NCBI GenBank assembly: GCA_963756885.1
Contig: CAVWPG010000004.1
Coordinates: 443,234 to 507,233 of the forward strand
DNA from: an uncultured Bacteroidales bacterium
GTDB lineage: Bacteria; Bacteroidota; Bacteroidia; Bacteroidales; VadinHA17
DNA: 64,000 nucleotides
Direction: 5' to 3'
Every line of letters begins with the position of its first letter. Positions within the stretch are counted from its first letter, which is position 1. The notes under the pieces were generated by a model. It was given only the letters and a program-made list of their open reading frames with translations. It searched no databases and was not told the origin of the DNA. Positions 60 through 54,168 of the stretch are shown here, piece after piece. Made by a program: the position numbers and the translations under genes.

Positions 60-108
60 ATAGCTGGCGAGGATTTGCAATCCGTGATAGCTGGCGCGGA
101 TTTGCAAT
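60..108. repeat. 27-bp REP-like tandem units (ATAGCTGGCG(A/C)GGATTTGCAATCCGTG); unit 1 intact, unit 2 interrupted by IS
   Basis: Palindromic core CGGATT-TGC-AATCCG; the unit continues at 1547-1582 and 3021-3034 on the far sides of the IS copies; related hairpin at 1-20. Confidence 0.8.
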
Positions 109-1546
109 CAGGGGTGTTCGGAAGAATCAAAAAATCAAAAACCGAGCTGGTATTAACAATTTATTAATGAGGATGTTAATAATGCTGTTCGATTTTGTGT
201 TTTCCTGCTGATATGAACAATTTTTATTTATGTTGTTTGTAACAATCTCCTAATCAAGAATATAAATAGATTTTGACCTCCTATATTTACATCAAGATTT
301 TAGGACGGATGAAATCTGAGACCAATAAAATATCCATTACACAACTACTCGCCTTAATCCCTGATGAGGATATCAGGCAAATAGCCAAAAAAACTCTGGT
401 AGATTATTATTCAAAGATTTTAGATGGGAGAAGTCTTCTGTGTCTAATTCTTTACTCATTAATAGAAAGCCAGCGTAATAGTTTACGCACCATGGAGGAT
501 ATTTTCAACAGCTCTGCTTTTAAATTCCTCTTTAATCTTGATCCAAATAAAAAAGTTAAATACAACTCCATCTCAGAGCGGCTTTCAGTAATAAATATTG
601 ATTTCTTCAAAAAATCTTATGAGCTCATATACAATCAGTTCAGTCAGCATTATAACGAGCAGGAAATAGAGAATCTCAAATTAGTCCGGGTAGATTCTAC
701 AATGGTTGCAGAAGCAGCGAATAAGCTTTTAAATGGAATGAACATCGGAAAGAAAAAGGATGGTAAAAAACAGATAAAATTTACGGTAGCTTATGACGGA
801 AAGTATCCTTGTATGTCAGAACTCTTTACTGATAAGAGATATTTATCTGAAGATCTGGCGATACCTGAAGTTATTTACAAATACGCTGAAAAAAATAAGA
901 GCTCAGTGTTTGTGTTTGATCGGGGAGTAGCGAAGCGTGAAGTATTTTGCAATTTAGATAATCAAGAAAACATTTATTTTGTTACCAGGTTAAAAGATAA
1001 CTTCCGATATAGGATAATCAAACAGATAGAACAGGGAACGAACAGACCAGTTGGTTCTTTAGATTTAATAAGTGATCAGATTATACAGTTGGGTAAACCA
1101 GACAGTAACCAGTTTTTAGAAAATCACTTCAGAATGATAATCGCAATTAGCCCCGAGACCAAAATTACTTATTACTTCTTAACTAATTTATTTGACAAAA
1201 AAGCTGAAGAAATACTCTCATTCTACAAGAAACGGTGGGATATAGAGGTATTTTTTAGGTTTCTGAAACAGGAATTAAACTTATCACACATAACATCAAC
1301 AAGCGAAAATGGAATGATGATCATAATGTATATGACCATGATTGCATCAATGTTGGTGTTGACCTATAAACGGATAAATAATGTTGGATACAAAACTGCT
1401 GTTCGCCGAATATCGTTTGAACTGAATGAGTTCATAATAAAGTTAATCGTAATGCGATGTGGCGGTGATCCAAGCTTAGTTTTTCGTTAAATGCAAAAAC
1501 CTGTTTTAATTTTTGCGTTCTTTGAAAAATCTTCCGAACACCCCTG
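109..1546 (+). mobile_element. IS4-family insertion sequence, copy 1 (1438 bp)
   Basis: 17-bp perfect terminal IRs CAGGGGTGTTCGGAAGA; 9-bp target duplication ATTTGCAAT at 100-108 and 1547-1555; AT-rich relative to host. Confidence 0.93.
309..1490 (+). CDS. IS4-family DDE transposase
   Basis: VDST, FDRG and YKKRWDIEVFFRFLKQ (Y-R-E-K signature) motifs; ATG at 309 preferred over the TTG at 273. Confidence 0.92.
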   Translation: MKSETNKISITQLLALIPDEDIRQIAKKTLVDYYSKILDGRSLLCLILYSLIESQRNSLRTMEDIFNSSAFKFLFNLDPNKKVKYNSISERLSVINIDFFKKSYELIYNQFSQHYNEQEIENLKLVRVDSTMVAEAANKLLNGMNIGKKKDGKKQIKFTVAYDGKYPCMSELFTDKRYLSEDLAIPEVIYKYAEKNKSSVFVFDRGVAKREVFCNLDNQENIYFVTRLKDNFRYRIIKQIEQGTNRPVGSLDLISDQIIQLGKPDSNQFLENHFRMIIAISPETKITYYFLTNLFDKKAEEILSFYKKRWDIEVFFRFLKQELNLSHITSTSENGMMIIMYMTMIASMLVLTYKRINNVGYKTAVRRISFELNEFIIKLIVMRCGGDPSLVFR

Positions 1547-1582
1547 ATTTGCAATCCGTGATAGCTGGCGCGGATTTGCAAT

Positions 1583-3020
1583 CAGGGGTGTTCGGAAGAA
1601 TCAAAAAATCAAAAACCGAGCTGGTATTAACAATTTATTAATGAGGATGTTAATAATGCTGTTCGATTTTGTGTTTTCCTGCTGATATGAACAATTTTTA
1701 TTTATGTTGTTTGTAACAATCTCCTAATCAAGAATATAAATAGATTTTGACCTCCTATATTTACATCAAGATTTTAGGACGGATGAAATCTGAGACCAAT
1801 AAAATATCCATTACACAACTACTCGCCTTAATCCCTGATGAGGATATCAGGCAAATAGCCAAAAAAACTCTGGTAGATTATTATTCAAAGATTTTAGATG
1901 GGAGAAGTCTTCTGTGTCTAATTCTTTACTCATTAATAGAAAGCCAGCGTAATAGTTTACGCACCATGGAGGATATTTTCAACAGCTCTGCTTTTAAATT
2001 CCTCTTTAATCTTGATCCAAATAAAAAAGTTAAATACAACTCCATCTCAGAGCGGCTTTCAGTAATAAATATTGATTTCTTCAAAAAATCTTATGAGCTC
2101 ATATACAATCAGTTCAGTCAGCATTATAACGAGCAGGAAATAGAGAATCTCAAATTAGTCCGGGTAGATTCTACAATGGTTGCAGAAGCAGCGAATAAGC
2201 TTTTAAATGGAATGAACATCGGAAAGAAAAAGGATGGTAAAAAACAGATAAAATTTACGGTAGCTTATGACGGAAAGTATCCTTGTATGTCAGAACTCTT
2301 TACTGATAAGAGATATTTATCTGAAGATCTGGCGATACCTGAAGTTATTTACAAATACGCTGAAAAAAATAAGAGCTCAGTGTTTGTGTTTGATCGGGGA
2401 GTAGCGAAGCGTGAAGTATTTTGCAATTTAGATAATCAAGAAAACATTTATTTTGTTACCAGGTTAAAAGATAACTTCCGATATAGGATAATCAAACAGA
2501 TAGAACAGGGAACGAACAGACCAGTTGGTTCTTTAGATTTAATAAGTGATCAGATTATACAGTTGGGTAAACCAGACAGTAACCAGTTTTTAGAAAATCA
2601 CTTCAGAATGATAATCGCAATTAGCCCCGAGACCAAAATTACTTATTACTTCTTAACTAATTTATTTGACAAAAAAGCTGAAGAAATACTCTCATTCTAC
2701 AAGAAACGGTGGGATATAGAGGTATTTTTTAGGTTTCTGAAACAGGAATTAAACTTATCACACATAACATCAACAAGCGAAAATGGAATGATGATCATAA
2801 TGTATATGACCATGATTGCATCAATGTTGGTGTTGACCTATAAACGGATAAATAATGTTGGATACAAAACTGCTGTTCGCCGAATATCGTTTGAACTGAA
2901 TGAGTTCATAATAAAGTTAATCGTAATGCGATGTGGCGGTGATCCAAGCTTAGTTTTTCGTTAAATGCAAAAACCTGTTTTAATTTTTGCGTTCTTTGAA
3001 AAATCTTCCGAACACCCCTG
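1583..3020 (+). mobile_element. IS4-family insertion sequence, copy 2 (appears identical to copy 1)
   Basis: Same IRs; TSD ATTTGCAAT at 1574-1582 and 3021-3029; offset 1474 bp from copy 1. Confidence 0.9.
1783..2964 (+). CDS. IS4-family DDE transposase (copy 2)
   Basis: Translation identical to copy 1. Confidence 0.9.
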   Translation: MKSETNKISITQLLALIPDEDIRQIAKKTLVDYYSKILDGRSLLCLILYSLIESQRNSLRTMEDIFNSSAFKFLFNLDPNKKVKYNSISERLSVINIDFFKKSYELIYNQFSQHYNEQEIENLKLVRVDSTMVAEAANKLLNGMNIGKKKDGKKQIKFTVAYDGKYPCMSELFTDKRYLSEDLAIPEVIYKYAEKNKSSVFVFDRGVAKREVFCNLDNQENIYFVTRLKDNFRYRIIKQIEQGTNRPVGSLDLISDQIIQLGKPDSNQFLENHFRMIIAISPETKITYYFLTNLFDKKAEEILSFYKKRWDIEVFFRFLKQELNLSHITSTSENGMMIIMYMTMIASMLVLTYKRINNVGYKTAVRRISFELNEFIIKLIVMRCGGDPSLVFR

Positions 3021-3045
3021 ATTTGCAATCCGTGCCTGCCATGAT

Positions 3046-4326: not shown

Positions 4327-5070
4327 ATGATCGGATTTCTTACACAGCTGGGTAAGTATGTTCTGCTTCTTAAAAAAGTCTTTTCCAAGCCCGAGAAAAG
4401 AATAGTGTACTACAGGCAAACGATGAAGGAATTTGTAAATCTTGGGCTAACTTCAATCGGAATAATAGCTATAATTTCTTTCTTCATGGGGGCTGTCATC
4501 ACCCTTCAGACAGCCTATAATACAGAAAACCCGATATATCCAAAATATCTGATCGGCCTGGGCTGCCGCGACTCCATGATCCTTGAATTCTCATCAACAA
4601 TAGCGGCATTGATACTGGCCGGGAAAGTAGGTTCGAACATTGCGGCAGAAATAGGTACTATGCGGGTTACCGAACAAATTGACGCCCTTGAGATAATGGG
4701 TATCAATTCCGCCTCTTACCTTATACTTCCAAAACTGATTGCCACGCTTATTTTCAATCCGTTCCTTACACTTATAGCAATAATCGTAGGGATCTTCGGG
4801 GGAGGAATAGCCGGCACCCTGTCAGGGGTTATTACGACAGAGAACTTCATATACGGGATCCAGTATGCCTTCATCCCCTATTATATAACCTACTCTCTTA
4901 TCAAGACTGTCGTATTCGCCTTCATTATAACAAGCGTTTCAGCTTTCCAGGGCTATTATGTCGAGGGCGGTTCCCTCGAGGTTGGAAGAGCCAGCACGAG
5001 GGCTGTTGTCTTCAGCAGCGTTCTTATCCTCCTGTTCAATGTAATCCTAACGCAACTGCTGCTGTCATGA
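4327..5070 (+). CDS. mlaE: MlaE-family ABC permease
   Basis: GSNIAAEIGTMRVTEQIDALEIMG signature; multiple TM helices. Confidence 0.92.
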   Translation: MIGFLTQLGKYVLLLKKVFSKPEKRIVYYRQTMKEFVNLGLTSIGIIAIISFFMGAVITLQTAYNTENPIYPKYLIGLGCRDSMILEFSSTIAALILAGKVGSNIAAEIGTMRVTEQIDALEIMGINSASYLILPKLIATLIFNPFLTLIAIIVGIFGGGIAGTLSGVITTENFIYGIQYAFIPYYITYSLIKTVVFAFIITSVSAFQGYYVEGGSLEVGRASTRAVVFSSVLILLFNVILTQLLLS

Positions 5071-5822
5071 TAAACGTAAGACACCTAAGCAAATCATTTA
5101 ACGGGAAGACAGTCCTGGAGAATATCAACGTGAGATTTGAAACGGGGAAGACCAATCTTATAATAGGCAGAAGCGGGTCAGGAAAAACAGTGCTTCTCAA
5201 ATCGATTGTAGGTTTGCACGATATCGACAAGGGAGAGGTCTGGTACGAGGACACACAGTTCAATACACTCAGCTTTGAGAACAAGAAAAAAATCCGAAGC
5301 GAGATGGGCATGCTCTTTCAGGGCAGCGCCCTCTTCGATTCACTCACGGTTGAACAGAATGTCAGGTTCCCTCTCGACATGTTCGCAGAAATGAACAATG
5401 AGGAAAAAGAGGAGAGGGTCAATTTCTGCCTTGAAAGAGTCAACATATTAAATGCAAATCAATTATACCCTGCAGAACTGTCAGGTGGTATGAAAAAAAG
5501 GGTAGCGATAGCGAGAGCTATTTCCCTTAATCCCAAGTATCTTTTCTGCGATGAACCCAATTCAGGGCTCGATCCCCTTACTGCAATCCTTATCGATGCC
5601 CTTATCAAGGAACTTACTGAGGAGTACTCGATGACAACGATAATCAACACCCATGATATGAACTCGGTCATGGAGATAGGTGAAAAGATCATTTTCATCA
5701 ATGATGGCCGGAAATACTGGGAAGGAAATAAAAACGAAATACTTTCATCCGACTGCGAACCACTCAACGATTTTGTTTTTGCAAATTCCCTGGCCAAAAA
5801 GCTCAGGTCAGCCGGAAAATAA
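5067..5822 (+). CDS. mlaF: MlaF-family ABC ATP-binding protein
   Basis: Walker A GRSGSGKT, LSGGMKKRVAIARA, DEPNSGLDP; ATGA-coupled to mlaE. Confidence 0.9.
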   Translation: MINVRHLSKSFNGKTVLENINVRFETGKTNLIIGRSGSGKTVLLKSIVGLHDIDKGEVWYEDTQFNTLSFENKKKIRSEMGMLFQGSALFDSLTVEQNVRFPLDMFAEMNNEEKEERVNFCLERVNILNANQLYPAELSGGMKKRVAIARAISLNPKYLFCDEPNSGLDPLTAILIDALIKELTEEYSMTTIINTHDMNSVMEIGEKIIFINDGRKYWEGNKNEILSSDCEPLNDFVFANSLAKKLRSAGK

Positions 5823-23780: not shown

Positions 23781-23828
23781 TCATTTTGTATTTCCATTTT
23801 TTTTTACGTTCTTTGTCTCTTCATAGAC

Positions 23829-23907
23829 TGGTGGACAGATTTGAGCTGATTGCAACCACGGGAAAAAATGCTAAACCGCGTATGATTTCCTATTATATTT
23901 CAGCTTA
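23829..23907 (+). ncRNA. SAM-II-type riboswitch (long-loop variant) upstream of metK
   Basis: GTGG..GATTTG..TTGCAACCAC..AAATGCTAAA matches the SAM-II/SAM-alpha pattern; loop AGCTGA can pair with downstream TCAGCT (23900-23905). Confidence 0.75.
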
Positions 23908-33702: not shown

Positions 33703-33718
33703 TGTTTCAGTGTTAAAT

Positions 33719-33828
33719 TTTTATTATCTCCCGGCTTTCCGGGATTAGGTTTTGGCACCGTTCTCTGCCATCAGGCAGTGGTTGCCAGGGTTTCACAGAG
33801 CCTAATCTCTTCACCCTTCTTAATAAAA
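33719..33828 (-). ncRNA. SAM-I (S-box) riboswitch
   Basis: Minus strand TTATTAAGAAGGGTGAAGAGA..GAAACCCTGGCAACC..GGTGCCAA..AGATAATAA; upstream of the met operon. Confidence 0.88.
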
Positions 33829-33869
33829 ACCAAACACCCTCTACGGAAGGAATATTTGATTTGTGCGGA

Positions 33870-43951: not shown

Positions 43952-44146
43952 CTACCTCTTGGTAGCATTAATCTTTCGGATCTCCATATACATGGCCAGA
44001 GCTCCCAGAAGTCCGATAAAGGTCATAAATGCCGTAAGAAACAGGTTTCGTCCGGAAGGGTGAAATATAATTATAGATGCCAGGAGCAGAACAGAAATTG
44101 TGAGATTTGCCGTTAATAATATTTTGTACAGAAGTAATTTGGTCAT
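43952..44146 (-). CDS. Small two-TM membrane protein
   Basis: 64 aa, two hydrophobic helices, basic C-tail; TACCTTTG -7 box on minus at 44252-44259. Confidence 0.55.
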   Translation of the reverse strand: MTKLLLYKILLTANLTISVLLLASIIIFHPSGRNLFLTAFMTFIGLLGALAMYMEIRKINATKR

Positions 44147-44388: not shown

Positions 44389-46755
44389 GTACAGCACCGA
44401 CTGATCATCCTCTGACTTCGGACACGGATCACTGGTGGACGTAACCCCGGGCTGAAGCCCGGGGTTGGGAGGTGTCTCACGCACATCTGCCGGATACCGT
44501 AGACAGATCCGTATCGGTGATCTGCCGGATCCCGGAGATAAGGTCCCCGAGGCTACTGCCTTACCTGACACCGGGCTGTAACATGAGCCTGGGCCGGTTG
44601 CCGCCCTCCTCATGACTGTGATACAGGATGACCACAGGTCAGGGTGCCCCGGCATGCAGTATAGATCTCATATCCGACACCGGACGATCGTGGACCAGAG
44701 TGCACAGACCTGCCGGATGTGGCTCCGTACAGCACCGACTGATCATCCTCTGACTCCGGACACGGATCACTGGTGGACGTAACCCCGGGCTGAAGCCCGG
44801 GGTTGGGAGGTGTCTCTCGCACGTCTGCCGGATACCGTAGACAGATCCGTATCGGTGATCTGCCGGATCCCGGAGATAAGGTCCCCGAGGCTACTGCCTT
44901 ACCTGACACCTGGCTGTAACGTAAGTCTGGCCCGGTTGCCGCCCTCCTCATGACTGTGATACAGGATGACCACAGGTCAGGGTGCCCCGGCATGCAGTAC
45001 AGATCTCATATCCGACACCGGACGATCGTGGACCAGAGTGCACAGAGCTGCCGGATGTGGCTCCGTACAGCACCGACTGATCATCCTCTGACTCCGGACA
45101 CGGATCACTGGTGGACGTAACCCCGGGCTGAAGCCCGGGGTTGGGAGGTGTCTCACGCACGTCTGCCGGATACCGTAGGCAGATCCGTATCGGTGATCTG
45201 CCGGATCCCGGAGATAAGGTCCCCGAGGCTACTGCCTTACCTGACACCGGGCTGTAACATGAGCCTGGGCCGGTTGCCGCCCTCCTCATGACTGTGATAC
45301 AGGATGACCGCAGGTCAGGGTGCCCCGGCATGCAGTATAGATCTCATATCCGACACCGGACGATCGTGGACCAGAGTGCACAGACCTGCCGGATGTGGCT
45401 CCGTACAGCACCGACTGATCATCCTCTGACTCCGGACACGGATCACTGGTGGACGTAACCCCGGGCTGAAGCCCGGGGTTGGGAGGTGTCTCACGCACAT
45501 CTGCCGGATACCGTAGGCAGATCCGTATCGGTGATCTGCCGGATCCCGGAGATAAGGTCCCCGAGGCTACTGCCTTACCTGACACCGGGCTGTAACGTGA
45601 GTCTGGCCCGGTTGCCGCCCTCCTCATGACTGTGATACAGGATGACCACAGGTCAGGGTGCCCCGGCATGCAGTACAGATCTCATATCCGACACCGGACG
45701 ATCGTGGACCAGAGTGCACAGAGCTGCCGGATGTGGCTCCGTACGGCACCGACTGAGCATCCTCTGACTCCGGACACGGATCACTGGTGGACGTAACCCC
45801 GGGCTGAAGCCCGGGGTTGGGAGGTGTCTCACGCACGTCTGCCGGATACCGTAGACAGATCCGTATCGGTGACCTGCCGGATCCCGGAGATAAGGTCCCC
45901 GAGGCTACTGCCTTACCTGACACCTGGCTGTAACGTAAGTCTGGGCCGGTTGCCGCCCTCCTCATGACTGTGATACAGGATGACCACTGGTCAGGGTGCC
46001 CCGGCATGCACTATAGATCTCATATCCGACACCGGACGATCGTGGACCAGAGTGCACAGAGCTGCCGGATGTGGCTCCGTACAGCACCGACTGATCATCC
46101 TCTGACTCCGGACACAGATCACTGGTGGACGTAACCCCGGGCTGAAGCCCGGGGTTGGGAGGTGTCTCACGCACATCTGCCGGATACCGTAGGCAGATCC
46201 GTATCGGTGATCTGCCGGATCCCGGAGATAAGGTCCCCGAGGCTACTGCCTTACCTGACACCTGGCTGTAACGTGAGTCTGGGCCCGGTTGCCGCCCTCC
46301 TCATGACTGTGACACAGGATGACCGCAGGTCAGGGTGCCCCGGCATGCACTATAGATCTCATATCCGACACCGGACGATCGTGGACCAGAGTGCACAGAC
46401 CTGCCGGATGTGGCTCCGTACAGCACCGACTGATCATCCTCTGACTCCGGACACGGATCACCGGTGGACGTAACCCCGGGCTGAAGCCCGGGGTTGGGAG
46501 GTGTCTCACGCACATCTGCCGGATACCGTAGACAGATCCGTATCGGTGATCTGCCGGATCCCGGAGATAAGGTCCCCGAGGCTACTGCCTTACCTGACAC
46601 CTGGCTGTAACATGAGTCTGGGCCGGTTGCCGCCCTCCTCATGACTGTGATACAGGATGACCACAGGTCAGGGTGCCCCGGCATGCAGTACAGATCTCAT
46701 ATCCGACACCGGACGATCGTGGACCAGAGTGCACAGAGCTGCCGGATGTGGCTCC
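44389..46755. repeat. Tandem array of seven 338-bp units (unit 6 = 339 bp), each with one REP hairpin
   Basis: Unit starts (GTAC(A/G)GCACCGA) at 44389, 44727, 45065, 45403, 45741, 46079, 46418; invariant AACCCCGGGCTGAAGCCCGGGGTT in each. Confidence 0.96.
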
Positions 46756-46758
46756 GTA

Positions 46759-46815
46759 CAACACCGGGCTTCAGCCCGGTGTTGACCATCCCCGTACATG
46801 CCGGGCTTCAGCCCG
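46759..46815. repeat. Two REP hairpins at the 3' flank of tnpA (GGGCTTCAGCCC orientation)
   Basis: CAACACCGGGCTTCAGCCCGGTGTTG and CCGGGCTTCAGCCCG; the second overlaps the tnpA stop codon. Confidence 0.85.
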
Positions 46816-47242
46816 TAAACTTTTCAAATCCATATTTGATGATAAGCTCCTCCGCCTCTTCATCCCAGGATTTAATACTATGATGGGATTCCTGATTCCA
46901 GATATATCTCCGTACCCTCGGAACATGTGATTCACTGACCGATACAGCATAGTATTCTACTGCCCATTTGAATTTTCGGCTTGTAATTTGATTTTTATTC
47001 ATCCAAAAGGATGATTCGCCCTTAATCAGCCTGATGTCATTGGATAAGGCATGATCGGGGTGAAGTAAAATAAGACAGTGCAGGTGTTGTAAATGGCCGT
47101 CTATTACGTCAATGTGGATCCCCTTTGATTTTGCATTTTCGCGTATGTGATCCAGAATGACTTTTTTTGTTTCTTTTGTCAGGAAGGGGACTCTTGATTT
47201 TGTTCCCCATACGCAGTGAAGCCAGTTTTTTACGTAAGCCAT
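46808..47242 (-). CDS. tnpA: Y1 HUH transposase (IS200/IS605 TnpA / RAYT-like)
   Basis: HCVWGTK, HLH (HUH), IKGESS, YAVSVS, catalytic YIWNQ..HH; no tnpB. Confidence 0.9.
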   Translation of the reverse strand: MAYVKNWLHCVWGTKSRVPFLTKETKKVILDHIRENAKSKGIHIDVIDGHLQHLHCLILLHPDHALSNDIRLIKGESSFWMNKNQITSRKFKWAVEYYAVSVSESHVPRVRRYIWNQESHHSIKSWDEEAEELIIKYGFEKFTG

Positions 47243-47255
47243 AATGCTGAAGTTA

Positions 47256-47313
47256 TAGGCTGAAGCCCTGTTAATGATGTTGGTCGGTATCCCCTGGCTG
47301 AAGCCCGGAGTTG
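47256..47313. repeat. Two REP copies at the 5' flank of tnpA (GGCTGAAGCCC orientation)
   Basis: TAGGCTGAAGCCCTG and GTATCCCCTGGCTGAAGCCCGGAGTTG (24/27 identical to the array REP). Confidence 0.8.
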
Positions 47314-47510
47314 ATGATCCTCTCCAGACCCGACTTAAGCGCGTTATCGTTAGGCATTACTTCATGGTTAATACATCATCTGATTATTGATCTTGAGTAG
47401 CCAGAACTTTATTAGTTTTCGTTATATCCCACTAGCTAAATATAGATATCTTGCCTATATTTTGTTTTTTATTAACACAAAATTCCTTTAAGCCATCATT
47501 CGAGGAAATT

Positions 47511-48269
47511 TCAGTTACTTTCTGTAAGCCATTTAGGTAATTCAGAGGTATAATTTCTGGAAGCTAATCTTTGTTTAACCATGTCTTTAAAAGATTGAAA
47601 TGGAATTTCCTTCGAATTTGCCATATCATCAGTAATTTGTCCTTTTTCGATAATTAATATGCGTTCGCAAAGATTATAGATAAGGTCCAAATTATGGGAT
47701 GTTACAAATAATGTTTTTTTACCCTTAAATGATATGAGCAAATTCAATATTTTGTCTAATGATTTAATATCAAGATGAATGAATGGTTCATCTAATATTA
47801 CTAGTTCAGGATTATGAATGAGCGATGCAGCAAGAGATATTTTTATTCTGTCACCAGAAGAATAATTTATGATTTTCTTTTTATCCAGATTATTTATCTC
47901 AAATAAATTAAGTATTTCCTTTATTCTCAATATTGATTCGGCTAGAGCAATTCCTTGAAACTTACAGATAAAATTTAAATATTCGAAGGGAGTAAATTCA
48001 TTTATAAGTATTGGTTCACTTAGAAATGCGCCAATTCTTGATCTGTAAGATACATAATTAGGTGTTATTTTTCGGTCAAAAATTATTATACTCCCATTAT
48101 TGTAAGGTACTATATTACATAACGTTTTAACAATGGTAGTCTTGCCGCTTCCATTATTTCCGACAAGGGCTACAAACTCTCCTGAGTTGACTGAAAAAGT
48201 CAAATCATTCAAGGCTGCTATCTTACCATACGATTTTCTTACTTCTTTAAATTCAAATATCATCACCAT
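47511..48269 (-). CDS. ABC ATP-binding protein (putative bacteriocin immunity/export)
   Basis: GNNGSGKT, YSSG signature, DEPF, TSH; very AT-rich. Confidence 0.85.
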   Translation of the reverse strand: MVMIFEFKEVRKSYGKIAALNDLTFSVNSGEFVALVGNNGSGKTTIVKTLCNIVPYNNGSIIIFDRKITPNYVSYRSRIGAFLSEPILINEFTPFEYLNFICKFQGIALAESILRIKEILNLFEINNLDKKKIINYSSGDRIKISLAASLIHNPELVILDEPFIHLDIKSLDKILNLLISFKGKKTLFVTSHNLDLIYNLCERILIIEKGQITDDMANSKEIPFQSFKDMVKQRLASRNYTSELPKWLTESN

Positions 48270-48280
48270 TATAGTTCTAT

Positions 48281-48838
48281 CTAGGTTAGTCTATCGATGG
48301 ATCTATATTTTAACAAACTGAGCGATACTAATAATAACGTGATATTATAGGCAACGACTACTGGTTTTTTTGTGAAAAGTATAATTGCAATTTGAGAAAT
48401 CAGTAAAAAAATTGATATGCCAATTTTAACGCTCTGTTTTAATGACCATGATCCAATTCTAAAACCAATGAAAACCAGGATCAATAGGTTTAGGATAAAG
48501 AAGTTTGATAGATCAATGTGGGAAAAACCAAAAAGTAAGGTTAAATGCAAAATTAGAAAAACATATAGAAATAAAATTCTACTAATTAAGATAATAATGC
48601 ACTCGACATTGTAGAAATTTAAAAAATCTATCAATTCGTTACTTTTAAGACTTCTATTTAGAATTACAAGTTGCAACAAATTCAAGGCAAAAATATTCAA
48701 CAATACAAATTGTTTATAACTGGCATTATAATTATAACAATACAAACCCGAACTAATTATTAAAATGGTAATTGGTCCTTTAGAATCCACCCAGGAAAAG
48801 TGAATCATTAACCTTATCGTATTTAATAAAGATCCCAT
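48281..48838 (-). CDS. Polytopic membrane protein (putative ABC permease/immunity)
   Basis: About 6 TM helices, AT-rich, overlaps the upstream gene. Confidence 0.65.
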   Translation of the reverse strand: MGSLLNTIRLMIHFSWVDSKGPITILIISSGLYCYNYNASYKQFVLLNIFALNLLQLVILNRSLKSNELIDFLNFYNVECIIILISRILFLYVFLILHLTLLFGFSHIDLSNFFILNLLILVFIGFRIGSWSLKQSVKIGISIFLLISQIAIILFTKKPVVVAYNITLLLVSLSLLKYRSIDRLT

Positions 48839-49506
48839 ACCTCAAATTTTATCCTTGCGATATTAATAAGGAAAATAATTAACGAAATACTCAACAATGA
48901 CCCTAAAATTCCAAATTGGATCCCCATCAAATAGGCTATAAATCCATTTGAAACAGGATTAATATAAAGTATTATTTTAAAAAATTGGCTCCTATCAGAT
49001 ATAACAACAATTAGTATCATTAATGAGATATAGGTCGAAATCACATTCTTTAAATCGGAGGTGATCTTTTTACTTTTAATAAAGTTTTTTAATATAAAAA
49101 ATATGATAATTTGATAAACCACTTGAATCAGATACAGTATTATAAGAATAAATAATTCATAATAGCTATTCTGGTTCAGAAGATAAAAGCTAGATATGAA
49201 AAAAAGAATTGAAAGAATAAAAACTCCAAACTCCCATCTTAAAAAGTAGTGCTTTAATTCTAATAATAAGATTTGAAATCTTGTTAAAGGAAAAGTACAG
49301 AAGTAGTAATGAATTTTGCCACTATCCTGGGAGCAATTGATTTCAAAATAGACAAAATCAATGGCTATGAATAAATTAAACAAGTGAATGAAATAATAAA
49401 GATCAAGTGTCCATTTATCATATTTAACTAACAATAATGAGTATAATAATATTATTATAGATATTATAATCAGCAGTATTTTTGATATGAATAATTTGGT
49501 TGACAT
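48823..49506 (-). CDS. Polytopic membrane protein (putative ABC-2 permease/immunity)
   Basis: About 6 TM helices, FPLTRFQIL..ELK loop and INP motif as in ABC-2 permeases. Confidence 0.7.
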   Translation of the reverse strand: MSTKLFISKILLIIISIIILLYSLLLVKYDKWTLDLYYFIHLFNLFIAIDFVYFEINCSQDSGKIHYYFCTFPLTRFQILLLELKHYFLRWEFGVFILSILFFISSFYLLNQNSYYELFILIILYLIQVVYQIIIFFILKNFIKSKKITSDLKNVISTYISLMILIVVISDRSQFFKIILYINPVSNGFIAYLMGIQFGILGSLLSISLIIFLINIARIKFEVWDLY

Positions 49507-49530
49507 TTGAATATTCTAATGCTATTTTAA

Positions 49531-49558
49531 CTCCCCAATTATCAAATTAATTGGGGAG
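49531..49558 (-). terminator. Hairpin between the precursor and immunity genes (attenuator or stabiliser)
   Basis: CTCCCCAATT-N8-AATTGGGGAG; no clear U-tract on minus. Confidence 0.5.
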
Positions 49559-49593
49559 ATTTGTTAATCAGAATGCCTCATTGCTAATTACTC

Positions 49594-49776
49594 TTAACAA
49601 TTATCAATTACACCCCATATTGACCCTCCCATTCCAACAAGTCCAATAACAATTGAGGCTCCTCCTGTTGCTAAAGCAGCACCAATAAAAGCTGCAGCGT
49701 AGAAACCCAAAGCTGCACCACAAGACATCTTACCGCCTTCGATGTTTTCCATTTGATCCAAATCTAATTTTTTCAT
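49594..49776 (-). CDS. Double-glycine leader bacteriocin-like precursor
   Basis: Leader MKKLDLDQMENIEGG; 45-aa hydrophobic Gly/Ala-rich core with two Cys; next to a C39 transporter. Confidence 0.88.
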   Translation of the reverse strand: MKKLDLDQMENIEGGKMSCGAALGFYAAAFIGAALATGGASIVIGLVGMGGSIWGVIDNC

Positions 49777-49902
49777 AGCGAGACATTTTTCTTTTGCCTA
49801 CTCTGTTTGGGCTTTTCGGCTTCCGCCTGCCATACAATTTTTTATGAATGGTATATCAAATTAAAATCATAAGAGTCCATCAATACCGGACTTGTCAAAA
49901 AT

Positions 49903-52087
49903 TCAATTGTAATCTTCCCAGAAGCGCTTGTAAAGATTGTCAGAAGCAATCAGTTCACTATGTGTGCCATGAGCCGCTATTTTATGGTTCTCAAGGATAT
50001 AGATACAGTCGCTCAGGCTCCTCACAAGATTCATCCTGTGAGAGATAAACAGTATCCCCATCTCTGCCTTCAAACGTGATAAAAGATTAAGAATGACAGT
50101 ATTCGCTCCCTCTGTCCATAAAGGAGGTGCCCTCATCTATTATAAGCATGCGGGGCTTGCTGACCAGGGCTCTTACAAAAGCCAGCAATTGCTTCTCTCC
50201 GCCCGAGAGATTAATGCCTTCCTCCCCTACCAGCGTGAATAACCCGGCCGGAAATTTATTGAAAAACACATCCAATCCATATTCTGAAACAACAGATACC
50301 ATCTCATTGATTTTTGTTTCAGTCAGATCTGACAACAGATTTTGCAGAATTGTCCCATTAAATATATGAATTTCCTGCGGTATAATCCCAATCTCTGAAC
50401 GCCATTTTTTTAAACCCACGGAATTTGATAACCTGTTGCCATCTGCAATAATATCACCTGATTCTGAATTATAAAACCTGAGAATGATATTTGCGAGGGT
50501 ACTCTTCCCGCAACCGCTTTCCCCTATAACGGAGATCAGCTTCCCCTTCTCAAGGGTTAGGCTGATATTGTCAAGCAATAATCTTCTTCCAGGAAACCTG
50601 AATGATATATCTTTCAGCTCCAATATACTTATATCAAATGGCGCTTCTTCATCACCGGCCTTATCACCGGTCTTACCCTCCTCCGGTTCAATCTGAGTGA
50701 ATTCAAACATCCTGTCGAGAGCTACCTTTGCCTCACTCAGGGGTATGCCTATGAGAGCCAGATTAAGGACAGACGGCACGAGGGTTGAACTCAGGGAAAG
50801 TATTGCCATCAATTCTCCCTGTGTAAGGCTTGACTTCATTACACAAAATGAGGCATAGATAAGTACAATTATCAGGTATGTAGTCCCCGCGATTCCAGCA
50901 AGCAGATTAAGCTTTACCTTGATCTTCCCCAGTAAAAATGCCCTCTCCTGAAATTCACCATAGATCCTGTTGTTTCCATTGAAAAAGGATTCCTGCCAGT
51001 TAAGGCTCTTAATCTCCCGGATGCCCTGCAGGGTGCTTATGAAATTACTTTCACTCGCTGCATATCCTGCCATCAGATTATGCTGCGCCGCTATAAATCT
51101 TGATTCCCATTTCCTCACAATCATGTAAAGCACAGGAAGACAAACAAGCGACAATATCCCCGACACCGGGGAATAATAAAAAATCATAGTGATCGTAAGA
51201 AGCAGGATCAGGACATCGATCGAATATATTCCAGCCATATCCGAAATTATCTTCTGAACACGCATCGTATCATTCAGGCGTGCCACAAGATCACCTGTTC
51301 TCCTTGTATCGAAAAACGTTTGCGGCAGAAACAACAATGAATAATAAAAATCATCAACTATTCTTATATTGAAATGCTTCCCCTGTGTCAGCAGCAATAA
51401 TTGCCGCAAGGCAGAAATAATTACCCTTGAAGAGAGCAGGAAAAATACGAGGATTGAGATAACTATCAGAAGCTTAAAATCCCCTGACGGAAGGATCCTG
51501 TCAACCAGCTTCTGAGTAAAAACGGCCATTACAAGACCTAATACTGAAATAACCACCCCTGTTGCCACACTTATTAGCAAAAGATCTTTTTCCGGTATGA
51601 CCGCTTTTAGCAACCAGCTGCGCTTGTTCCTTCTGCTCTCCTTTTCAGGCTTAAATGAACCGCCCGGTACGAGTGCGAGACATTTCCTGCTGTTCCAGAT
51701 CTTATCAAGCTCATCTGCCGGCATAAGGGTAAGTCCGACAGCAGGATCCCACAAAATGAATCTGCCTTCCTCAAAGCCAAAGCTTACCATAAAATGTTCC
51801 AGGTTTTCCTCTTTGACAACATGCAGGATGAGAACATGCTCAAATTCAATGATATCCTTTATTGTGGCCTCATAACCTGAGCTTTCGAGACCGTAGTCAT
51901 TCGCCGCCTGATAAAGGCCGAGCATCGTTGTACCCGTTTGTGTCGTGCCGCTCAGCTTCCTGACCTTATCGATTGTTGCATGCCCTCCATAGTATTTTAT
52001 TGCCGAAACCAGGCATGCAGCACCACAATCTGTTGAATCATGCTGCAATACTGAACATCTCCTGACAGCCTTTATCTTATTCATCAT
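49903..52087 (-). CDS. Peptidase C39-containing ABC transporter, frameshift near 50105
   Basis: QHDSTDCGAACL, HF, DPA; GESGCGKST, LSGGEKQ; the C-terminus (ISHR..) continues in ORF 49903-50136. Confidence 0.9.
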
Positions 52088-53808: not shown

Positions 53809-54168
53809 GAATCCCGATGGCTATCGGGATTGCGGTATAACCTCTGCGAAACTCTGCGAGAACATTCGTGCTTTACGGAATTTGTGATTATTGATATGTC
53901 TCGCTGATGTACGCAGATTGAAGAACGCTGAGTCCCGCAGATTAAATTGCTTTAACATCTGCGAATCCCGATGGCTATCGGGACTGCGGTAACCTCTGCG
54001 AAACTCTGCGAAGAACATTCATGCTTTACGGAATTTGTGATTATTGATATGTCTCGCTGATGTACGCAGATTGAAGAACGCTGAGTCCCGCCGATTAAAT
54101 TCCTTTAACATCTGCGAATCCCGATGGCTATCGGGACTGCGGTAAACTCTGCGAAACTCTGCGAGAAC
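53809..54168. repeat. About 2.3 tandem copies of a 153-154-bp unit headed by the palindrome TCCCGATGGCTATCGGGA
   Basis: Unit starts at 53809, 53963, 54116; internal TCTGCG/CGCAGA motifs. Confidence 0.88.

Follow-up and report, generated by a model that had tools for sequence, protein, structure and literature searches.

The window analysed here, a stretch of 64,000 nucleotides from an uncultured Bacteroidales bacterium (lineage VadinHA17; assembly GCA_963756885.1, contig CAVWPG010000004.1, positions 443,234 to 507,233), contains a solitary tnpA gene for a 144-aa Y1 (HUH) nuclease, itself flanked by related hairpins, and adjoining it a tandem array of seven non-coding units of 338 bp. We consider it probable that this is a REPtron-like locus of a Y1 nuclease of subclass 1.2, at which a hairpin-bearing piece of the 3' flank was amplified locally in tandem. 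Comparison of homologous loci showed tnpA to be bracketed by an inverted pair of predicted hairpins with a conserved GGCT-NN-AGCC apex and covarying stems, and the same comparative evidence showed a link between gene, hairpin and array. An earlier sequence-only reading of the window had described the seven head-to-tail units, the invariant hairpin in each of them, the tnpA without tnpB, the hairpin family on both sides of the gene and the non-coding nature of the unit, and had placed the array with the Y1 nuclease; all of this was borne out by the present analysis.

The array occupies positions 44389-46766 (about 2.4 kb, no strand assigned), where Tandem Repeats Finder (TRF) reports a single array of 7.0 copies with a period of 338, 97% matches, 0% indels and a score of 4481. 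The units are arranged head-to-tail with no spacer between them; six are 338 bp long and one (unit 6) 339 bp, and 21 of the 339 columns of the unit alignment are variable. G+C content is 60% in the array as compared with about 45% in the genome. Every unit contains the hairpin AACCCCGGGCT-GA-AGCCCGGGGTT, whose 11-nt arms (100% complementary) stand 2 nt apart, and this hairpin is invariant in all seven units. The inverted-repeat search and the unit alignment place the first copy, AACCCCGGGCTGAAGCCCGGGGTT, at 44443-44466 on the plus strand; identical copies follow on the same strand at 44781-44804, 45119-45142, 45457-45480, 45795-45818, 46133-46156 and 46472-46495. There is 1.0 perfect hairpin (stem of at least 7) per 338-bp unit, and the remaining ~310 bp are non-palindromic.

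A protein-coding array was rejected: the unit length is not a multiple of 3, and the longest open reading frames (ORFs), which are 127 aa long, lie on the minus strand and overlap from unit to unit, had no match in Pfam and none in NCBIfam, while the sole two database relatives of the 127-aa ORF (proteins of 69-223 aa searched) come from the same contig. No Rfam 15 family matched the array at its gathering threshold, and at E <= 10 only sub-threshold, chance-level SorX-like matches appeared; a known structured RNA family was discarded for want of a covariance-model match at gathering score. The fold energy of the unit was not better than that of dinucleotide shuffles (z -1.00 on the plus and -0.71 on the minus strand), and none of 104 predicted consensus pairs covaried among the seven units, which are near-identical and give this count low power. 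A structured RNA in the unit was rejected on the weak z-scores and the lack of covarying pairs, and the structured cargo and the multi-copy RNA cassette of the sequence-only reading found no support. As to composition, the ~310-nt spacer (window 44470-46755) has GATC as its top 4-mer (7 per unit where 1.15 are expected, z 5.4), CCGGA occurs 6 times per unit against an expected 0.5, and CTGCCGGAT is present three times in each unit.

The hairpins form a compact group around tnpA. For the core GGCTGAAGCC the window contains 11 copies where 0.09 are expected, none of 100 shuffles reaches 11, and all 11 copies are found between 44450 and 47305: seven in the array, two in the gap between array and tnpA, and two upstream of tnpA. 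The tnpA-proximal end of the array abuts a hairpin with a 12-bp stem, called 'b' (CAACACCGGGCTTCAGCCCGGTGTTG as written on the plus strand; 46759-46784, minus strand), in which 10 of the 11 positions of the 5' foot GTACAACACCG agree with the unit start GTACAGCACCG. The tnpA stop codon TGA (46808-46810) falls in the loop of hairpin 'a' (46802-46815, minus; CGGGCTGAAGCCCG when read on the tnpA strand). At the other end of the gene, again read on the tnpA strand, a GGCTGAAGCC palindrome core (47258-47267, plus) begins 25 nt before the ATG; it is inverted with respect to hairpin 'a'. Farther out lies the outer upstream hairpin GTATCCCCTGGCTGAAGCCCGGAGTTG (47287-47313, plus), which shares 24 of its 27 positions with the unit hairpin. 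The gene is enclosed by two bracket copies that are inverted relative to each other, with longer-stem hairpins of the same apex just outside. No GTAG tag was found at the hairpins.

The bracket is a property of the gene family. At 24 homologous loci, a count that omits one locus with a frameshifted ORF (L035) and two with partial matches (L043 and L046), GGCTNNAGCC was found no more than 60 nt upstream of the ATG in 17 cases, mostly starting at -25 or -26, and at the stop codon in 16, with the stop codon inside the loop in 13; random-window controls gave 1.3% and 0.8%. Covariation was assessed on 71 distinct GGCTGAAGCC hairpins with a GA/TC centre, picked from 200 distinct GGCTNNAGCC sites on loop sequence only. 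These showed 63 double-change cells as compared with 23.8 +/- 3.9 in shuffles, of which none in 500 reached the observed value; all controls with slid partners scored below the true stem partners, and the lower stem covaries. The hairpins in this set are related and three of the ten pairs were fixed by the selection criterion. The result is supportive, not decisive, of a folded form with fixed apex that is under selection, as would be expected for a single-strand hairpin recognised by a protein.

The tnpA gene (46808-47242, minus strand) encodes a Y1 HUH nuclease with the motifs HLH and YIWNQESHH and matches the Pfam family Y1_Tnp (PF01797) at 1.4e-21 over residues 7-117. Its score with the NCBIfam IS200 model (56.5) is just above the cut-off of 55, and that with REP_Tyr_transpos (NF047646) is 22 bits where the cut-off is 80. 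The nearest relatives in the PDB are the TnpA proteins of ISDra2 and IS608, and no E. coli TnpA-REP chain was present among the PDB matches at E <= 1. In an alignment of 16 homologues, of which L034 and L040 look truncated, H-L-H is conserved and the tyrosine motif reads Y-I-x-N-Q-x-x-H-H. No TnpB-type domain was detected in the ORFs of at least 150 aa between 36000 and 56000. In the parts of Quentin 2018 (PMC6006769) used here, TnpAY1 subclass 1.2 is defined by Y---Q--HH, has a mean length of 148 aa, is a low-copy group outside insertion sequences that is limited to Cyanobacteria and Bacteroidetes, and is described without associated repetitive extragenic palindromes (REPs) and without known function. 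By its motif, its length and its host taxon, the window TnpA is assigned to this subclass, the assignment being a prediction from these traits. Membership among the class 2 REP-associated tyrosine transposases (RAYTs), which the sequence-only reading had considered, was rejected on the Y---Q motif in place of Y---NP, on the 22 bits where 80 are required and on the missing TnpA-REP match in the PDB.

The gene does not behave as an insertion sequence. Only two matches were obtained with tblastn in its own genome of 5.59 Mb, the second of which is 24% identical, and homologues at E <= 1e-20 were present in 68 of 211 other genomes of the genus with one to three matches each, mostly one. The same 601-aa ABC transporter is encoded downstream of tnpA, with 70-83% identity, in nine loci (L022, L024, L026, L028, L030, L031, L032, L047 and the window). 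Comparison with the homologue of the closest relative, L047 (81% identical at the aa level), gave a nonsynonymous rate dN of 0.12 and a synonymous rate dS of about 1.8. These data show that tnpA is conserved, syntenic and under purifying selection, and the gene is, as judged from sequence, vertically inherited and apparently domesticated. An IS200/IS605 insertion sequence was rejected on the single full copy and the constant slot beside the ABC transporter across loci.

Arrays recur at these loci and are seen in about half of them. Tandem repeats with a period of at least 30 were found within 1.5 kb of tnpA at 15 of 29 loci of the genus, and repeats with a period of at least 40 within 700 bp of tnpA at 10 of 26 loci of the species collection, as compared with 2 of 26 in the far flanks; the two sets of loci share genomes. 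For the own genome as a whole, the rate is 41 arrays with a period of at least 60 in 5.59 Mb. The association of tnpA homologues with arrays, of which the sequence-only reading had asked whether it exists elsewhere, was thus found. The most informative case is L047, where the gene lies in the same slot with DNA flanks that are 70-77% identical and an ABC transporter that is 83% identical at the protein level. Its array of 9.7 copies of 271 bp starts at the stop-codon hairpin and has a G+C content of 61%; each unit contains about two long hairpins and a short one (1.9 perfect hairpins per 271 bp). The L047 spacer could not be aligned with that of the window. An array in the same slot with an unalignable spacer indicates that the array is kept as a feature while its sequence turns over.

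Two further arrays in the own genome carry the hairpin pair. The non-coding array L078 (G000:C11:46084-49625) consists of 4.5 copies of 780 bp, and L079 (G000:C11:174871-178507) of 4 copies of ~830 bp (802-863), also non-coding; in both, a two-hairpin module is formed by a long stem with the apex GGCTTCAGCC and by GGGCTTTAGCCC 36 nt further. In the L079 unit, 17-18-bp repeats occur in runs as well, and a tnpA homologue is represented by its first 23 codons. The second Y1 gene of the genome (L081, G000:C1:174664-175080), the paralogue with 24% identity, has the motif YILSQEKHH and reaches 51.7 bits with the NCBIfam IS200 model; about 100 nt downstream of it (175180-176484) lie three blocks of the 25-bp repeat CTACAGATGTTTCGCAGCTCTGCTG, with 7-9 copies each, which contains a GCAGC/GCTGC hairpin. 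A distant tnpA homologue (46% identical) in a metagenome-assembled genome (MAG) of Chitinophagaceae (L042) has tandem 23-bp repeats on both sides (4856-4919 and 5476-5529; 2.3-2.8 copies), the repeat of one side being the reverse complement of that of the other, and looks like a miniature of the inverted-flank design.

The distribution of the hairpin differs from that of a REP. In the own genome, 9 of 12 GGGCT[GT][AC]AGCCC sites are at the locus, as are 10 of 34 16-mer matches with at most 2 mismatches, the other 24 being imperfect, and 19 of all 31 GGGCTNNAGCCC sites fall within the three arrays. Similar confinement was observed in relatives, with 21 of 21 matches at the tnpA locus in G196 and 9 of 11 in G204. 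The hairpin is restricted to the locus, and no genome-wide population of REPINs, the paired form of the REP, accompanies it. Without dispersal of the hairpin, the locus cannot be counted as a classical REP/REPIN system, and the term REP, as the sequence-only reading had used it, does not apply in the strict sense.

The 338-bp unit itself was searched for widely. No copy other than the seven of the array was found in the own genome, so that the non-autonomous mobile element suggested in the sequence-only reading lost its footing, and the 348 further family genomes searched gave none either, 50 of them matching the hairpin alone. Four weak, short family matches outside the hairpin (G108, G099, G214 and G288; E 6e-4 to 9e-3) were judged to be chance. 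There was no match to the unit in plasmid or phage records and none to two exact 27-29-mers of it in metagenome contigs, and blastn of the 312-nt spacer at word size 7 gave a single 20-nt chance match in the own genome and none in the relatives' loci. In three soil DNA runs of one study we found contigs with 80-228-bp pieces of the unit at 95-99% identity, which documents the unit sequence in short reads, perhaps those of the source sample; these contigs cover no flanks and contain no joints, and they are too short and too low in depth to exclude circles. No RNA run holding the unit was listed among the sequencing runs.

The variants among the units record how the array grew. Of the 21 variable sites, 11 are common to at least two units, and 30 of 55 pairs of sites have all four gametes. 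Unit 1 is separated from unit 3, and unit 2 from unit 4, by 4-5 sites, whereas adjacent units differ at 7-12. Such a mosaic is that of stepwise duplication, including duplication of a two-unit block, with exchange among units, and it speaks against one rolling-circle burst after which the units decayed independently. Homology past the array ends is weak, that of the tail after hairpin 'b' being reached by 24 of 500 shuffles and that of the left flank by 39 of 500. With flank matches of only 10/11 and 8/9, an origin of the unit start as a deletion derivative of hairpin 'b' was not established.

Local amplification at a REPtron-like locus could have proceeded as follows. By analogy with the E. 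coli TnpA-REP protein, TnpA would bind the hairpins on single-stranded DNA during replication and nick nearby. The resulting 3'-OH would be extended, or transferred to a neighbouring copy of the hairpin, whereby units would be added, as in a published model for the amplification of bacterial interspersed mosaic elements (BIMEs). Unequal crossing-over and gene conversion would then expand, contract and homogenise the array, which would explain the rapid turnover of the spacer between species, and the ~310-bp spacer would be passenger flank DNA rather than functional cargo. Precedents are given in the part of Ton-Hoang 2012 (PMC3333891) used here, which describes cleavage and strand transfer by E. 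coli TnpA-REP in vitro and two models for the amplification of BIME arrays, one of them rolling-circle.

Several observations weigh against this reconstruction. The action of TnpA on the array is putative, being proposed by analogy. About 20 of 30 array ends appeared by eye to lie near hairpins; in the formal test (perfect hairpins with a stem of at least 6, within +/-3 nt) the count was 8 of 30 where 5.3 are expected (P ~0.14), and the claim was dropped. Some arrays of relatives (L026, L023, L069 and L066) have no perfect hairpin of at least 7 bp in the unit, and the own genome contains many hairpin-bearing non-coding arrays away from Y1 genes, so palindromes in this lineage may undergo tandem amplification quite generally. 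The enrichment of GATC and CCGGA could mean that the spacer is more than passenger DNA. Finally, BIMEs and REPINs consist of two inverted REPs with a short linker, unlike the window unit with its single perfect hairpin; the L047 unit does have this two-REP feature.

The main rival to local amplification by the nuclease is a satellite that arose without TnpA: stalled replication at palindromes, and the slippage and unequal crossing-over that palindromes promote, would have produced it, and the array would be near tnpA only since the hairpins are there. We regard this as the less likely origin, to be kept in mind all the same, as the variant mosaic fits ordinary unequal exchange, including the greater similarity of units two apart than of most neighbours, and both the arrays away from Y1 genes and the non-significant array-end test are what it would lead one to expect. 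It does not readily account for the strong concentration of arrays at tnpA ends across species, where they often start at the bracket hairpins, or for the tnpA-end hairpin module in three arrays of the own genome, one of them with 5' codons of tnpA. An assembly artefact, in which the repeat was collapsed or concatenated by the assembler, has to be considered for any array that is known from an assembly with no spanning read, long tandem repeats being error-prone; we give it hardly any credence, since the 21 variable sites of the units follow a structured pattern, a comparable array occupies this slot in an independent MAG, and the soil-run contigs carry pieces of the unit, though these may stem from the source sample.

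It is improbable that the unit is a non-autonomous mobile element, excised as a circle of single-stranded DNA which HUH-primed rolling-circle synthesis would copy before its re-insertion as a concatemer. HUH chemistry permits this, a route of the kind to tandem BIMEs is in print (legend of Fig. 7C in PMC3333891, a source used in part), and the head-to-tail units without spacer would conform to it. Outside the array, nevertheless, no copy of the unit was found in the own genome, the 348 family genomes or the plasmid and phage records, nor were its two exact 27-29-mers in metagenome contigs; with one perfect hairpin it has no obvious left and right ends, its variants are common to non-adjacent units in a way unlike a single burst, and joints were missing from the soil-run contigs, within the limits of length and depth stated above. 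Still more improbable, in our judgement, is an array that is functional in itself, as a repeated RNA or as a cis-regulatory or methylation-site-rich spacer upstream of a small membrane-protein gene. The candidate gene (43952-44146, minus) is an ORF of 64 aa for a predicted membrane protein; with respect to the tnpA strand it lies downstream of the array, in a region that is conserved beside the L047 array, so that the closest relative also has an array upstream of the same small gene in the same slot; the abundance of GATC points in the same direction. The RNA version is opposed by the Rfam, folding and covariation results given above, and both versions by a spacer sequence that is unconserved even in the closest relative, where GATC is not clearly enriched (3 in the unit as compared with 1.0 expected, reached in 79 of 1000 shuffles). 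More speculatively, and to us doubtful at present, the nucleases of subclass 1.2 may be domesticated enzymes that act only in cis on GGCT-NN-AGCC hairpins at the ends of their own genes; nuclease-driven amplification would then be locus-confined, without spreading REPINs, and the array could serve as a regulatory or methylation-site spacer of variable length.

The array and the small membrane-protein gene lie inside a bacteriocin/ABC-transporter cluster. Next to tnpA lies an AT-rich island (47500-49830, 23-32% G+C) with two membrane-like ORFs that lack annotation and, at 47511-48269 (minus), an ABC ATPase. The island further encodes a bacteriocin-like peptide of 60 aa with a double-glycine leader (49594-49776, minus; weak match to Pfam Bacteriocin_IIc at 19.9 bits, below the cut-off), with a DUF805b RNA motif just upstream of it (49795-49829, minus; 46.3 bits) and a C39-peptidase ABC exporter after the peptide (50087-52087, minus). 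Elsewhere in the window we noted a SAM (S-box) riboswitch (33718-33829, minus; 75.1 bits), a SAM-II riboswitch (23825-23884, plus; 50.5 bits) and, in the whole-genome TRF search, a 1474-bp x 2.0 tandem duplication with 100% identity and 34% G+C at 72-3034 (G000:C4:443305-446267). The own genome seems unusually rich in long-period non-coding arrays. Other arrays are located at 53809-54168 of the window and at C4:267676-268819, C16:403836-405075, C16:963239-963678, C11:51856-54100 and C14:31340-32142 of the genome; several carry a palindrome of the type TCCCGAT-N-ATCGGGA, and some, with 9-11 copies of 75-86-bp units, resemble tRNA-gene arrays by their consensus.

Several known systems share traits with the locus. 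A tnpA-REP (RAYT) gene flanked by clusters of REPs and BIMEs is said to have been described by Nunvar in 2010. As in the REPtron (PMC3333891, as far as the part used here describes it), there is a low-copy, non-moving Y1 HUH gene at a fixed position in related species (nine syntenic loci), with inverted palindromes on both sides and a variable number of hairpin units beside it; unlike the REPtron, the window protein belongs to class 1 (Y---Q) and not to class 2 (Y---NP), and its hairpins lack GTAG and are not dispersed. The small Y1 TnpA, the IS200 model just passed and the hairpins near both gene ends recall IS200, which consists of tnpA only, but a single full copy with a 24% paralogue, the same slot across species and mutually inverted end hairpins do not. 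With subclass 1.2 the protein shares its size (144 aa, mean 148), the Y---Q--HH motif, low copy number with divergent paralogues, occurrence in Bacteroidetes and non-IS character; unlike the subclass as described in the available part of PMC6006769, which its supplement may qualify, the window-type genes are bracketed by conserved inverted palindromes and often accompanied by arrays. In the literature searched, supplementary files (especially those of Quentin 2018) being outside its scope, we found no report that links subclass 1.2 genes to arrays and to a conserved bracket of hairpins in which the stop codon lies in a loop, none of a hairpin confined to its locus, and none of a single-hairpin unit as long as 338 bp.

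For subclass 1.2, the locus and its relatives supply a candidate DNA partner, namely two palindromes that share an invariant GGCT-NN-AGCC apex, one of them with the stop codon in its loop. They also supply a footprint that can be seen in genomes: tandem arrays that evolve fast, at a locus that stays fixed. The candidate partner makes binding and cleavage testable with defined oligonucleotides, and the orthologous loci offer a natural series for asking if HUH nucleases drive tandem amplification. The closest published counterparts of the array are tandem clusters of REPINs. The part of Bertels and Rainey 2011 (PMC3116915) used here describes ordered tandem REPIN repeats that include flanking sequence, in clusters that adjoin each RAYT, and quotes as the largest cluster in Pseudomonas four REPINs over ~700 bp. 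As in these clusters and those of Di Nocera 2013 (PMC3733652, likewise used in part), the window repeat combines hairpin and flank beside the cognate Y1 gene; unlike them, it extends over 7 x 338 bp (2.4 kb) with one hairpin and ~310 bp of non-palindromic DNA per unit, in a genome without a genome-wide REPIN population. Since tandem REP clusters beside RAYTs and models of HUH-primed amplification have already been published, the array is a local variant within an established type of repeat cluster, rather than an element of a new type.

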